From the NCBI GenBank assembly GCA_040387635.1, contig JAZKDJ010000001.1, positions 1 to 49,850 on the forward strand: 49,850 nucleotides of DNA, written 5' to 3'. Within the stretch, counting starts at the first letter, position 1. Every line of letters begins with the position of its first letter. Below are positions 1,002-41,728 of this stretch, piece by piece. This stretch comes from Patescibacteria group bacterium. Lineage in GTDB: Bacteria > Patescibacteriota > Minisyncoccia > Phycocordibacterales > PALSA-1337. Below the pieces are notes generated by a model. The model saw only the letters and a program-made list of their open reading frames with translations. It was not told where the DNA came from and made no database searches. The position numbers were made by a program, and so were the translations under genes.

Positions 1002-1652
1002 ATGGACTTCAGTATTGTTATGACAAACTTGTTTTCTGAGCATCTCTATCCACTGATGGGGCTCGGGTTAATGATCGGGGGTATTCCAGCGCTCCTAGGC
1101 TCTATATATCTGGCGCTTCAGGGATACATTGATGTAAAGATGCTCTTCGTGCTTTTCTTCGTAGCAAGTCTTCTTCTCGACGTAATATGGTACGGGGTTG
1201 GAAGGGTACTTCGAAAGCACCATCCAAAATGGGTTCGAGGCCTCGCAGAGAAGGCTCGCAAGGCAGAGCAGTTGTACGTGCATCAAAATATTTTCAAAAT
1301 GGTTTTTATATCACGCTTTGTGTATGGAACAAACTCAGCAGTTTCCATTCTGTCTGGAGTGAAGAGGGTATCCTTCAGTAAATTCTTGCTAACCTGCATG
1401 TTTACGCTTTTCATTTGGTTCTTCGTAATGCTCCTCATTGGCTACTCGATCGAAGCAAGCCTTCCTGAGTTCCAGAGCACGCTCAACAACGTCATCATCG
1501 GCATCTCAGTATTCTGGCTAACGATCATCTCTATATTCATTCTGCTCAAAAAATACATATGGGCCAAGCTTACAGGCGAGAAGCCTGAGAAATTCGAGCG
1601 CACGCAGCAAATGATGCATGGTAACCTCAGGAAGAGTAACGCCAATTCCTAG
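1002..1652 (+). CDS. DedA/VTT-family membrane protein
   Basis: Several TM segments; LLLDVIWYGVGR and FISRFVYG match DedA motifs. ATG 1002 preferred over TTG 978 because TATAAT lies at 990-995. Confidence 0.8.
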   Translation: MDFSIVMTNLFSEHLYPLMGLGLMIGGIPALLGSIYLALQGYIDVKMLFVLFFVASLLLDVIWYGVGRVLRKHHPKWVRGLAEKARKAEQLYVHQNIFKMVFISRFVYGTNSAVSILSGVKRVSFSKFLLTCMFTLFIWFFVMLLIGYSIEASLPEFQSTLNNVIIGISVFWLTIISIFILLKKYIWAKLTGEKPEKFERTQQMMHGNLRKSNANS

Positions 1653-3155: not shown

Positions 3156-3833
3156 ATGATCCAGACAAAAAATCTTACAAGAAAATACAAAAGCGGAATG
3201 GGGGAGATTACAGCTCTCAACAATGTCAGCGTTGACCTCGCTGAGGGAGAATTTTTGGCAATCACAGGACGATCTGGATCTGGTAAAAGCACACTCCTGT
3301 ATCAACTCGGTCTGTTGGATAAACCGACATCTGGCGAAATATACATTGATGGAATTGATGTGGTTAAGGCTGACGAGAACGAGCGAACCTTCATGAGACT
3401 CTCAAGCCTCGGTTACGTTTTCCAAGATTACGCTATTCTTCCTTCGCTTACAGCACTTGAGAATGTCATGCTTCCACTCCTCATGCTCGGAATTGAGCCT
3501 ATTGAAGCCGAGAGAAAAGCCGAAGCTGCTCTAGCAAAGATTGGGCTCTCAGATCGCATTAGGAACTATCCTGCACAGCTCTCAGGAGGACAGCAGCAGC
3601 GAGTTGCTATCGCTCGAGCCATTGCTCATGATCCAATGATTCTTTTTGCTGACGAACCTACTGCAAACCTCGATACAGAAACTTCTGAAGTAGTACTCAA
3701 GGCCTTCAAAGACCTCCACAAGGAAGGTCAGACCATTGTTATGGTTACACACGAGAAAGACTACGCAAAGATGACAGACCGAATTATCGAACTTGCTGAT
3801 GGAGAGATCATAAGCGATACTAAATCAATATAA
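3156..3833 (+). CDS. ABC transporter ATP-binding protein, LolD/MacB-like
   Basis: Walker A GRSGSGKST, signature LSGGQQQR, Walker B ILFADEPT, H-loop VTHE. Confidence 0.95.
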   Translation: MIQTKNLTRKYKSGMGEITALNNVSVDLAEGEFLAITGRSGSGKSTLLYQLGLLDKPTSGEIYIDGIDVVKADENERTFMRLSSLGYVFQDYAILPSLTALENVMLPLLMLGIEPIEAERKAEAALAKIGLSDRIRNYPAQLSGGQQQRVAIARAIAHDPMILFADEPTANLDTETSEVVLKAFKDLHKEGQTIVMVTHEKDYAKMTDRIIELADGEIISDTKSI

Positions 3834-3844
3834 CCCTGCAAACC

Positions 3845-5260
3845 ATGACTACTACCGCTTCTGCAACGCCTCCCTCTAATGAACATCAAACACCAACCGT
3901 ATTCGTAATATTCGGAAAAACCGGAAACCTCGCACAGAAAAAACTTTTACCTGCGCTTCTCAATCTTTATTCCAAAAAAATTCTGCCAAAGCAGTTTGCT
4001 ATTGTTGGAATTGGACGAAGAGTGTTTACGCGTGAAGATTTCAGACAGTATGTTCGTGACAACATGCATATCAAAGTCGGCCAGTACAAGGAAGAAGACA
4101 TTAAACACTTTCTTGATCACATGACCTATGTGCAGGGTTTCTTCGACTCCAAAGATCTCTATACAGAGCTAGCAGAGAAGCTTGATGCGCTTGATAAGGG
4201 TTTTAGACGATGTTCGAACAAACTTTTCCATCTCTCCGTGTCTCCTGACCACTACGAACTAATTCTTAGCCAGCTATCGGATTCAGGATTAACAGTTCCT
4301 TGTGGAGGCAATCAGGGTTGGACAAGAATTCTCGTGGAGAAGCCTTTCGGTAACAACAGCGAAACAGCAAGATCACTCGATGCATTGCTCGGCAAGCTTT
4401 TTGATGAATCTCAAATATTTCGAATCGATCACTATCTCGCTAAAGAAGCGATGCAAAACATTATTGCCTTCCGATTTGCAAACTCACTCTTTGAACCGCT
4501 TTGGAACAAGGACTATATAGACAAGGTTCATATCAAGCTTTTGGAGAAAATCGATACCGAGGGCCGAGGCGCCTTTTATGACAACGTCGGTGCACTCAAG
4601 GATGTAGGACAAAACCACATGCTGCAAATGCTTGCTCTTGTTGCTATGGAAAACCCAGACTCATTCGAAGCAGACGATGTTCGAGGTGAACGTGCGAAAG
4701 TATTGGGCAAGCTTTTGCCTATTACCAAGAAAACTATTGCCCATCATGCTACTCGCGCACAGTATGAGGGATACCAACACGAGAAGGGTGTAACTCCTAA
4801 GTCACAGACCGAAACGTACTTCAGGCTTGAGACATACATAGACAACGGCCGATGGAAGAAAGTTCCGTTCTATCTGGAGAGCGGTAAGGCTTTGTCTGAA
4901 GCTAGAGCTGAGATCGATGTGTATTTCAAGAATCCATCATCAGAAGAGCGACAGAACGTCCTCACCTTCAAAATTCAGCCTGACGAGGGCATCAAGATTC
5001 GTTTTTGGGTGAAAACTCCGGGCTTCGACCTCAAAGTTGAACCGAAGACACTCAAATTCAAATATGCCGATTTCCAATCACTCGACCTACTTCCTGACGC
5101 ATACGAACGAGTGCTCTATGATGCGGTAGTTGGCGACCAAACTCTCTTCGCAAGCACAGAAGAAGTGATGGCTGCTTGGGATTATATAACCCCAATTGTG
5201 GAGGCCTGGAGCGAGGTACCCCTCAAGAAATACAAGAAAGGAAGCGAGTACGTAGACTAG
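3845..5260 (+). CDS. zwf: Glucose-6-phosphate 1-dehydrogenase
   Basis: IFGKTGNLAQKKLLPAL, VEKPFG, RIDHYLAKE, QNHMLQ, AYERVL motifs. Confidence 0.93.
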   Translation: MTTTASATPPSNEHQTPTVFVIFGKTGNLAQKKLLPALLNLYSKKILPKQFAIVGIGRRVFTREDFRQYVRDNMHIKVGQYKEEDIKHFLDHMTYVQGFFDSKDLYTELAEKLDALDKGFRRCSNKLFHLSVSPDHYELILSQLSDSGLTVPCGGNQGWTRILVEKPFGNNSETARSLDALLGKLFDESQIFRIDHYLAKEAMQNIIAFRFANSLFEPLWNKDYIDKVHIKLLEKIDTEGRGAFYDNVGALKDVGQNHMLQMLALVAMENPDSFEADDVRGERAKVLGKLLPITKKTIAHHATRAQYEGYQHEKGVTPKSQTETYFRLETYIDNGRWKKVPFYLESGKALSEARAEIDVYFKNPSSEERQNVLTFKIQPDEGIKIRFWVKTPGFDLKVEPKTLKFKYADFQSLDLLPDAYERVLYDAVVGDQTLFASTEEVMAAWDYITPIVEAWSEVPLKKYKKGSEYVD

Positions 5261-5299
5261 GCTGGTGAATTTTATCAAAATCCCTGTTATAATTTGCCC

Positions 5300-5527
5300 A
5301 TGTTCAAGAATTTTTTAATGAAACAAATGCTTAAGCGCCAGCTTAAGGGAGTTCCGGAAGCCGAGCAGGAACGAATTATCAGTGCAGTAGAGAAGAATCC
5401 GGATTTTTTCAAAGAGATCGCGGACGAAGTTGAGAAGCGAGTGAAGGGAGGAATGGGTCAGCAGGAAGCAGCAATGTCAGTCATGAGAAAGCGCCAGGAC
5501 GAGATCAGGAAGATCATGAATGGCTAA
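5300..5527 (+). CDS. Small helical hypothetical protein (75 aa)
   Basis: ATG 6 nt after TGT-TATAAT (5285-5293); host-like codon usage. Confidence 0.7.
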   Translation: MFKNFLMKQMLKRQLKGVPEAEQERIISAVEKNPDFFKEIADEVEKRVKGGMGQQEAAMSVMRKRQDEIRKIMNG

Positions 5528-5544
5528 TTGAAAATAATATAATT

Positions 5545-6138
5545 ATGAAGAAAAAGAAGATCACAGTATTCCTCGGACACCCTGACAAAGAAACAAAGTC
5601 AGGATCATTTGCTGACGCGTACGAAAAGGGAGCACGAGACGCAGGTCACGAAGTCCGAAGAGTAAACCTCGGCGACCTTAAGTTTGATCCCATCCTCCAC
5701 AAGGGATACAAGGTCATCCAGGAGATCGAACCTGACCTCAAGGCAGCTCAGGAAGCAATCACGTGGTGCGACCACTTGGCGGTCTTCTACCCAAGCTGGT
5801 GGTCAACTATGCCAGCCCTCCTCAAGGGTTTCTTCGACCGAGCATGGATTCCAGGCTTTGCATTTAGATTCAAGAAGGAAGGCTTTGGAGCCGGATACAT
5901 CTGGTACCGCCTCATGCAGGGTAAATCAGCTCGAGTATTCGTAATGTCTGACTCACATCCACTCGCAGCTCGATTCATCTTCGGAGATACAACTAACGAA
6001 ATCAAACGATGCCTCCTCTGGTTCGCAGGCTTCTGTCCAATCAGAATCAAGAAAGTCGGTCCTCTCAAGTTTGCCAATGAAGCAAAGCTCGCTAATTGGA
6101 GAAAGCGGTTTGAAAAGTGGGGAAGCAAAGCGGCTTAA
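5545..6138 (+). CDS. Flavodoxin-fold NAD(P)H:quinone oxidoreductase (MdaB/KefF-like)
   Basis: FLGHP, YPSWWSTMPALLKGFFDR flavodoxin-2 signature. Confidence 0.88.
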   Translation: MKKKKITVFLGHPDKETKSGSFADAYEKGARDAGHEVRRVNLGDLKFDPILHKGYKVIQEIEPDLKAAQEAITWCDHLAVFYPSWWSTMPALLKGFFDRAWIPGFAFRFKKEGFGAGYIWYRLMQGKSARVFVMSDSHPLAARFIFGDTTNEIKRCLLWFAGFCPIRIKKVGPLKFANEAKLANWRKRFEKWGSKAA

Positions 6139-6157
6139 ATAATTTGGAAAATTAAAT

Positions 6158-6186
6158 AAAAAAACGGGCAGCAAGGCTGCCCGTTT
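6158..6186. terminator. Intrinsic terminator, U-tract on the minus strand (likely bidirectional)
   Basis: AAACGGGCAGC-AAG-GCTGCCCGTTT, with an A7 run on the left. Confidence 0.8.
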
Positions 6187-6288
6187 GACGTTTATTGGTA
6201 GCGGACATGGAGAAGGCCCTCGCCGTTTAGCAACCTAGGCTGCACTCCGTATCAAGTGTTGCAACTTGCCACCTACACAAGAAACGCC
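6187..6288 (-). ncRNA. Candidate ~100-nt structured small RNA
   Basis: Minus-strand TG-A-TAAGAT (6303-6295) places +1 at 6288; the 5' and 3' ends pair; three stems have G-U pairs only on the minus strand; it runs straight into the terminator. Confidence 0.5.
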
Positions 6289-6335
6289 GCTCAGATCTTA
6301 TCACAATCAAACCTTTATGGTATGCTCTTTCTACC

Positions 6336-7433
6336 ATGTCACTTTCAATCGGAATCGTAGGACTCCCGAACGTCGGCAAGTCCACACTTTTTAACGGCCT
6401 TACTCGCAAGAGCGTGCTCGTAGCCAATTATCCATTCGCAACCATCGACCCATCAGTGGGTGTTGTTGCTGTTCCTGATGACAGACTCGTAAAGCTCGGT
6501 GAGTTTTCTAAATCAGTCAAAATCGTTCCTGCTGCAGTTGAATTCGTAGATATCGCAGGATTGGTTAAGGGTGCATCCGCTGGAGAAGGTCTTGGCAACC
6601 AGTTTTTGACTAACATTCGAGAGACTGACGCGATCGCAGAGGTTGTGCGAATTTTCGAGGACGACAACATCATTCACGTTGATGGAAAAATAAACCCTCT
6701 CAAGGATATCGAAGTAATCAACCTAGAACTCATTCTCGCAGACATGCAAACTGTATCTAAACGACTCTCAAACCTCGGTCGTGAGATCAAGCAGGCCAAG
6801 AAGGAGGCCCTTATTGAAGAAGCTCTCCTCAAGAGACTTATGGCAGCCCTTGAAGCAGGAAAGCTTGCATCATCTGTCACAACAGACGAATTCGAAAAGC
6901 CTATGTACCAGCAGCTTTGCCTCCTCTCATCAAAGCCTATTCTTTATGTATTGAACAAAAAGTCAGGCGGTAAAAACTTGGACGAAATGAACGACGAGCG
7001 TTACCAGAAGCTCATGGAGTTTTTCAAAAGCACTAACTCAGGATATGTAGTTGTAGATGCAGGTATCGAGCACGATCTCAAAGACATGACAGATGTTGAG
7101 AAAAAAGAAATGCGCGAAGGACTAGGTGCAAAAGAAGACGGCATCGATGACCTCATCAAAAAGGGGTATGAAATCCTCAACCTCATTACGTATTTCACAA
7201 CAGGCGAGACAGAATCTCGAGCTTGGACTATCGGCAAGGGTTGGACAGCACCAGAAGCAGGAACAGCAATTCACGGAGATTTCAAAGAAAAGTTCGTCCG
7301 AGCTGAGGTAATCGAATGGAACAAACTACTTGAAGCTGGATCATATGGAGTAGCACGAGAAAAAGGCTGGGTAAAAACTGAAGGAAAAGAATACATCGTG
7401 AAGGATGGGGATGTGATTGAGTTTAAGATTTAG
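6336..7433 (+). CDS. ychF: Obg-family ATPase YchF
   Basis: GIVGLPNVGKST, NYPFATIDP, DIAGLVKGAS.GEGLGNQFL; C-terminal TGS domain (YFTTG, YIVKDGDVI). Confidence 0.96.
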   Translation: MSLSIGIVGLPNVGKSTLFNGLTRKSVLVANYPFATIDPSVGVVAVPDDRLVKLGEFSKSVKIVPAAVEFVDIAGLVKGASAGEGLGNQFLTNIRETDAIAEVVRIFEDDNIIHVDGKINPLKDIEVINLELILADMQTVSKRLSNLGREIKQAKKEALIEEALLKRLMAALEAGKLASSVTTDEFEKPMYQQLCLLSSKPILYVLNKKSGGKNLDEMNDERYQKLMEFFKSTNSGYVVVDAGIEHDLKDMTDVEKKEMREGLGAKEDGIDDLIKKGYEILNLITYFTTGETESRAWTIGKGWTAPEAGTAIHGDFKEKFVRAEVIEWNKLLEAGSYGVAREKGWVKTEGKEYIVKDGDVIEFKI

Positions 7434-24111: not shown

Positions 24112-24161
24112 CCACAAAATTTAGACAAATTAAGGCAATCCAGCGTGGTATAATTTGTCGT

Positions 24162-41710: not shown

Positions 41711-41728
41711 TTATGCTAAAATAATCAC

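Follow-up and report, generated by a model that had tools for sequence, protein, structure and literature searches.

The spacer between a quinone-reductase-like gene and ychF in this uncultured member of the Patescibacteria carries, on its minus strand, an extended -10-like motif, a 102-nt domain whose two ends pair with each other, and an intrinsic terminator. The most likely reading of this arrangement, to which we assign a probability of about one half, is a species-specific, stand-alone gene for a non-coding RNA of ~130 nt. Computation establishes the motifs and how they are arranged, the terminator, and a closing helix that is not random; from these we infer a transcript that is made, stable and functional. 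RNA polymerase would recognise the extended -10 element TGATAAGAT (6303-6295) and begin transcription at G6288 or G6287. The 102-nt domain would then be transcribed, with its first and last 20 nt pairing as an interrupted 17-bp helix that would bury the 5′ end of the RNA and enclose a three-way junction, and transcription would stop at an 11-bp hairpin followed by U7 (6186-6145).

The features of the locus are as follows:
6318..6326, plus strand: ychF promoter TG-G-TATGCT, leaderless type, 9 nt before ATG 6336
6295..6303, minus strand: extended -10-like motif TGATAAGAT (TG-A-TAAGAT), which fits the promoter class TGNTANNNT of the genome
6287..6288, minus strand: predicted transcription start (G), 6-7 nt past the -10 hexamer, placed by the spacing seen at leaderless genes
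6187..6288, minus strand: 102-nt enclosed domain with closing helix, three-way junction and two inner arms; MFE -32.9 kcal/mol
6269..6288, minus strand: 5′ arm of the end-to-end helix, 17 pairs with 6187-6204
6187..6204, minus strand: 3′ arm of the end-to-end helix, abutting the terminator directly
6162..6186, both strands: 11-bp hairpin with 7 G-C pairs and a loop of 3, intrinsic terminator, -18.1 kcal/mol
6145..6161, minus strand: U-tract U7 A U3 ... of the minus-strand terminator; on the plus strand, an A-tract before the hairpin

Genomic setting of the candidate RNA locus

The window, by which we mean the whole stretch of DNA analysed, covers bases 1-49,850 of a single contig that is 566,346 bases long (GC 44%). 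All genes around the candidate lie on the plus strand:
3156-3833, plus strand: ABC ATPase gene
3845-5260, plus strand: glucose-6-phosphate dehydrogenase (G6PD) gene
5300-5527, plus strand: small gene of 75 aa
5545-6138, plus strand: Flavodoxin_2/FMN_red quinone-reductase-like gene
6336-7433, plus strand: ychF

The candidate RNA locus falls within the 197-nt spacer that leads from the reductase gene to ychF. Beyond it on the minus strand there is only the 3′ end of the convergent reductase gene, and the gene map thus bears out an earlier sequence-only reading of this DNA, which had argued that no minus-strand gene lies downstream and that the RNA is therefore not a riboswitch leader. The predicted transcript contains no open reading frame of more than 18 codons, and two longer overlapping reading frames gave no Pfam match.

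Upstream, the 75-aa gene fills the spacer between the G6PD and reductase genes, with TGTTATAAT (5285-5293) located six bases 5′ of its ATG; DNA matches to this gene are found in relatives G001, G005, G016, G018, G027, G030, and G032. Genes for G6PD, a quinone-reductase-like flavoprotein, and the redox-regulated ATPase YchF adjoin one another across 3845-7433, an order that partly recurs in G001, G005, and G033.

Orientation of the terminator

As the sequence-only reading had it, the terminator follows the 102-nt domain immediately: the 11-bp hairpin occupies 6186-6162, leaves no gap, and is followed by U7. On the plus strand the tail consists only of UUUGACGUUUAUU, which is poor compared with the minus-strand U7. 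The hairpin also sits 24 nt past the reductase stop codon, the usual distance, and was called as a terminator on the plus strand as well.

To place this orientation in context, the terminator-like hairpins of the genome were grouped into 112 clusters. Among the 47 terminators situated between co-directional genes, the U-tract lies on the sense strand only in 28, on both strands in 15, and on the antisense strand only in 4, the candidate locus being one of these four. Of the other three, one ends an antisense tRNA-Val, one stands behind a plausible 76-aa reading frame on the same strand, and one is unexplained. The orientation favors a minus-strand unit but is not compelling; since 15 of the 47 terminators are bidirectional without an antisense gene, the hairpin can be explained without an antisense RNA.

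The main rival, less likely but quite possible, is that the locus holds no RNA gene. The hairpin would be the ordinary bidirectional terminator of the reductase gene, and the 100 nt from there to the ychF promoter a lineage-specific leftover of rearrangement in which a -10-like word and an inverted repeat occur by chance; antisense transcripts, if any, would be noise, halted by the terminator before it reaches the reductase gene. The usual distance from the stop codon, the plus-strand terminator call, and the share of bidirectional terminators in the genome all speak for this account, whereas the poor plus-strand U-tract facing a minus-strand U7 speaks against it. The hairpin resembles known bidirectional terminators, built as A-tract, G+C stem, and U-tract, in having A7 on one side and a T-rich stretch on the other, but differs from them in that its strong U-tract faces the strand without an annotated gene. 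A bidirectional terminator would account for the hairpin alone, leaving the -10 motif and the closed 102-nt domain without an explanation.

A promoter-like motif on the minus strand

The extended -10 element TG-A-TAAGAT that had been claimed at 6303-6295 of the minus strand is present there as TGATAAGAT, and its hexamer TAAGAT is inside the range of -10 hexamers used by the genome. The class to which it conforms, TGNTANNNT, has 211 of its 996 sites in intergenic DNA, which makes up 9.6% of the genome, a 2.2-fold enrichment. It occurs 5-9 nt before the start codon of 51 genes, with 57 promoters listed when the distance is set at 4-10 nt, and 8-17 nt before the mature 5′ end of about 10 tRNA genes. 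Extended -10 words so close to 57 start codons imply that leaderless mRNAs are widespread in this organism. Examples of such promoters within the window are found at 1857-1865, 6318-6326, 24146-24154, and 41714-41722.

At leaderless genes of the genome the distance from the -10 element to the start peaks at 5-9 nt. The first paired base of the candidate, G6288, is located 6 nt downstream of the minus-strand motif and fits this spacing. Counting against a minus-strand promoter, the genome has 13 TGNTAAGAT sites and 12 of them are intragenic. The minus-strand motif and the ychF promoter stand back-to-back, with their -10 hexamers ~26 bp apart and their predicted starts ~48 bp apart. We also considered that the -10 word might be a mere reverse complement of a ychF -35 box (TTATCA). 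This explanation is weak, as -35 boxes show no conservation among the extended -10 promoters of the genome.

Pairs of motif and terminator in gene-free DNA number 9 with the real word and 5-9 with control words. Because the real count equals that of the controls, a promoter-terminator pair is not by itself evidence for a gene, a result that also favors a plain reductase terminator beside a chance -10 word. Three of the nine real-word pairs cover tRNA genes (a single tRNA-Val accounts for two, both located upstream of it), two cover small open reading frames, and four are unexplained, the candidate locus among them. The other three unexplained pairs, at G000:C1:261491-261572 (plus strand), 382449-382610 (plus strand), and 510402-510552 (plus strand), contain neither a tRNA nor a sizeable reading frame, and an end-to-end helix is found in none of them.

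The closing helix and the statistics of the fold

Most of the secondary structure proposed from the letters alone recurs in the minimum free energy fold of 6288-6187. This fold contains the end-pairing stem (GGCGUUU/AAACGUC, UUG/CAA, and GUAG/CUAC) along with the CAAGU/ACUUG hairpin and the GGAG/CUCC stem. It also has five G-U pairs on the minus strand, where three had been noted earlier; among the five are G2-U101 and U18-G87. The inner junction described as GCAGC/GUUGC plus GGC/GCC, on the other hand, turns out to be a suboptimal alternative (-29.1 vs -32.9 kcal/mol). In the closing helix the outer 13 pairs have probabilities of 0.83-1.0, and the 14th has 0.6.

A helix anchored at positions 1 and 102, with seventeen pairs between the 20 nt at either end, arises in 0.33% of 3000 dinucleotide shuffles, a figure that is somewhat favorable because the boundaries of the core were set by the helix itself. 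A second comparison is independent of helix-defined ends: with the ends set by the -10 word and the terminator, none of 60 control motif-terminator pairs taken from elsewhere in the genome exceeds 8 anchored pairs, while the candidate locus has 17. The helix spans exactly the interval from 6 nt past the -10 motif to the base of the terminator. This coincidence, together with its rarity among shuffles and control pairs, argues against a chance inverted repeat next to an ordinary reductase terminator.

The thermodynamic picture is less favorable. A 133-nt piece that includes the hairpin scores z = -3.07, and it does so because of the terminator. The 102-nt core alone yields z = -1.10, with 25 of 200 shuffles equally stable, and the interior of the core z = -0.9; among GC-corrected 102-nt intergenic windows of the genome the core ranks at the 17th percentile. 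A core z of about -1.1 is what one would also expect if no RNA gene were present. Its base composition points the other way: at 53% GC, compared with an intergenic median of 42%, the core belongs to the top 8% of intergenic windows and is unusual for spacer DNA of this genome. The energy difference between the strands is mostly compositional, with shuffle means of -28.9 and -24.3 kcal/mol for the minus and plus strands. The fold thus exceeds chance only in part; the closing helix is unusual and the rest is not thermodynamically distinctive.

The same numbers bear on a reading in which the element acts on the plus strand, either as the read-through 3′ region of the reductase mRNA or as a regulatory leader of ychF. 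The weak plus-strand terminator tail would make read-through possible, and the inverted repeat can form 14 Watson-Crick pairs on that strand too. Folding of the plus strand does not exceed chance, however (z = -0.45, 58 of 200 shuffles equally stable), and no riboswitch or leader family matches. Moreover, ychF has its own leaderless-type promoter 9 nt before its ATG, so the spacer is not needed as a ychF leader, and the regions upstream of ychF in relatives show no conservation. We therefore regard a plus-strand element as very improbable.

Comparison with known RNA classes

Rfam searches at gathering and at relaxed thresholds returned no family for the candidate. The weak matches that did appear were driven by the terminator, namely sraA at 25 bits (threshold 56) and the L20 leader at 17 (threshold 59). 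Neither the 6S nor the SRP model matched at E <= 10, and no riboswitch family matched.

SRP RNA (4.5S, RF00169) is similar to the candidate in length, but the candidate lacks the helix-8 motif and would have no Ffh or FtsY to bind. The RF00169 model gave no match at E <= 10 in the region or in the whole genome, and none at E <= 1 in any of 41 relatives. In this genome (G000) the Ffh M domain (PF02978) has no match, PF00448 (SRP54-type GTPase) yields just a 23-bit P-loop match, and a DTAGR motif occurs in none of the six frames. Searches for the SRP54-type GTPase domain came up empty in 31 genomes from the order (with G000 among them), in 120 others of the class, and in 120 others of the phylum; neither the Ffh M domain nor 4.5S RNA was found in 41 genomes (G000 and 40 relatives). 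In control searches, the two protein domains matched 14 of 14 genomes and the RNA model 13 of 14. SRP RNA was accordingly rejected as an identity for the candidate, there being no model match and neither Ffh nor FtsY found in G000 and 241 other Patescibacteria sampled, and the earlier statement that the locus lacks the SRP helix-8 motif stands. That Ffh, FtsY, and SRP RNA were not found is nothing new, since a published remark already notes that many CPR bacteria lack the SRP subunits (PMC8080830).

6S RNA (RF00013) shares with the candidate a small, stable-RNA-like design in which the 5′ and 3′ ends are paired. The candidate differs in being shorter, as was correctly noted before (102-130 nt vs about 180), in having a 102-nt three-way junction rather than a long, ~180-nt rod with a central bubble, and in not being conserved. 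The RF00013 model had no match at E <= 10 in the region, and no 6S gene was found elsewhere in the genome; this identity, too, was rejected.

Three further classes were considered and set aside. Neither ARAGORN nor Rfam recognizes a tRNA or tmRNA at the locus. For Y RNA/YrlA, the TROVE-domain Ro protein (PF05731) has no match in the genome and there is no Rfam Y RNA match. A riboswitch or leader is countered by the lack of a minus-strand gene downstream and of any riboswitch family match.

Homolog searches and the variable reductase-ychF slot

No homolog of the candidate was detected by blastn in 41 relatives, or by nhmmer, which was run first on the DNA upstream of ychF in 30 genome loci, where the sequence-only reading had suggested that one might be sought, and afterwards on all 112 loci around ychF or reductase relatives. 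A single-sequence covariance model combining sequence and fold found none in the 41 relatives (next best E = 0.2) or in 150 genomes of the family, and with filters off it found none in 22 loci around reductase/ychF relatives (best E = 0.22). Phage records and IMG/VR contained no match. Within its own genome the candidate is single copy, with no paralog or partial copy. The searches covered ~190 genomes of the family and order in total, and they are a weak test of homology: the genus is represented by this genome alone in the collection searched, the nearest relatives covered share 80-82% YchF protein identity, and the spacer of the closest known YchF relative, P0002 (88% identity), lies outside the comparison.

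These results decide one part of the earlier interpretation. The suggestion of a minimal housekeeping RNA is not supported, as nothing similar was found in the ~190 family and order genomes; without conserved structure in relatives, the housekeeping option fails by the refuting condition which that interpretation had itself named. The lack of a homolog also counts in favor of a chance inverted repeat beside a bidirectional terminator.

G005 and G033 share the arrangement of small gene, reductase, and ychF, and in G004 and G025 the reductase likewise lies near ychF. Spacer content was read in G005, G033, and G004 (the ~700-nt spacer of G025 was left out):
G005: 73-aa plus-strand open reading frame with its own terminator
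G033: TGATAATAT promoter (plus strand), 85-nt hairpin body, terminator, and a second, diverged copy of the ychF promoter with the first 14 codons
G004: 216-aa transposase-like open reading frame flanked by palindromes

In G001, the reductase is gone from the slot and the small gene directly precedes ychF. The slot is variable, and judged from these sequences the candidate unit appears to be private to its lineage. Such turnover, with different contents in G005, G033, and G004 and the reductase missing in G001, is also in line with a leftover of rearrangement and no RNA gene.

The G033 unit (L031:1223-1365, plus strand) has an 85-nt body with z = -4.35, a stability reached by 0 of 200 shuffles, followed by a hairpin and U-tract. 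No Rfam family matches it, and it resembles nothing in G000 or in the other loci. Like the candidate, it combines the reductase-ychF slot, an extended -10 (TGATAATAT), a structured body, and an intrinsic terminator; unlike the candidate, it lies on the plus strand and is much more stable, and the two share no sequence or model similarity. The same spacer carries the ychF promoter and first 14 codons twice (L031:1366-1430 and 1472-1545, plus strand), with 34 of 42 coding bases identical and the copies separated by a ~70-nt piece with a hairpin. This duplication was apparently left behind by an insertion or a recombination event affecting the 5′ end of ychF. In G004 (L026), the transposase-like reading frame lies ~50-705 nt upstream of ychF, with palindromes CACTTAGGTGT...ACACCTAAGTG.

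Insertions of this kind raise the question of whether the candidate is itself what is left of a small element that was mobile or was inserted here (a decayed gene, say, or a miniature inverted-repeat element), with inverted termini that would form the closing helix at the DNA level. Its arms do make an imperfect 16-20-nt inverted repeat around ~65 nt, and in relatives the slot has received insertions, namely a transposase-like reading frame with palindromes (G004) and a second copy of the ychF 5′ end (G033). The sequence is nevertheless single copy, without partial copies in the genome; an inserted cassette with flanking direct repeats was looked for and not found; the phage and viral collections contain no match; and no protein remnant of the 73-aa gene of G005 was found in the candidate spacer. 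A mobile remnant is, on this evidence, an unlikely origin.

Possible function of a minus-strand RNA

With the alternatives weighed, a stand-alone minus-strand RNA gene remains the reading we prefer. What holds of the original proposal is the promoter class, the terminator, the lack of an open reading frame, and the absence of anything downstream; what does not is the housekeeping option and, apart from the closing helix, a distinctive core fold. The candidate resembles stand-alone small RNA genes defined by a promoter and a Rho-independent terminator in having its own -10 element, no reading frame, a 3′ end made of hairpin plus U-tract, a length of ~130 nt, and an intergenic position. It departs from them in that it is conserved in no relative, has no detectable target, and is predicted only. 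Its host is also unlike theirs, being an uncultured member of the Patescibacteria with extended -10, leaderless-type promoters.

With regard to the trans-acting role that the earlier reading had offered as one option, a duplexfold scan for targets over all start regions gave no outlier, the best energy of -39.2 kcal/mol being weaker than the shuffled mean of -43.0 kcal/mol. The only structural hint to function is that the predicted minus-strand promoter and the leaderless promoter of ychF are arranged back-to-back. This placement makes a local role the simplest guess: the promoters may compete for polymerase or, alternatively, the RNA may regulate something in the neighborhood of G6PD, quinone reductase, and YchF. 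More speculatively, and with little likelihood in our estimate, the candidate could be a newly arisen structured CPR RNA whose presence or transcription tunes this redox neighborhood, with the G033 unit as its functional analog.

To our knowledge, almost nothing is known about small RNAs in Patescibacteria. At present the locus is one orphan candidate, its main value being that of a target for metatranscriptome mapping, and it shows how apparent fold stability came from a terminator. If validated, a species-specific small RNA beside a stress GTPase gene would be a small data point on the origin of regulatory RNAs in streamlined genomes. Should the redox-tuning scenario prove true, the reductase-ychF slot would be a recurrent site of regulatory RNA birth.
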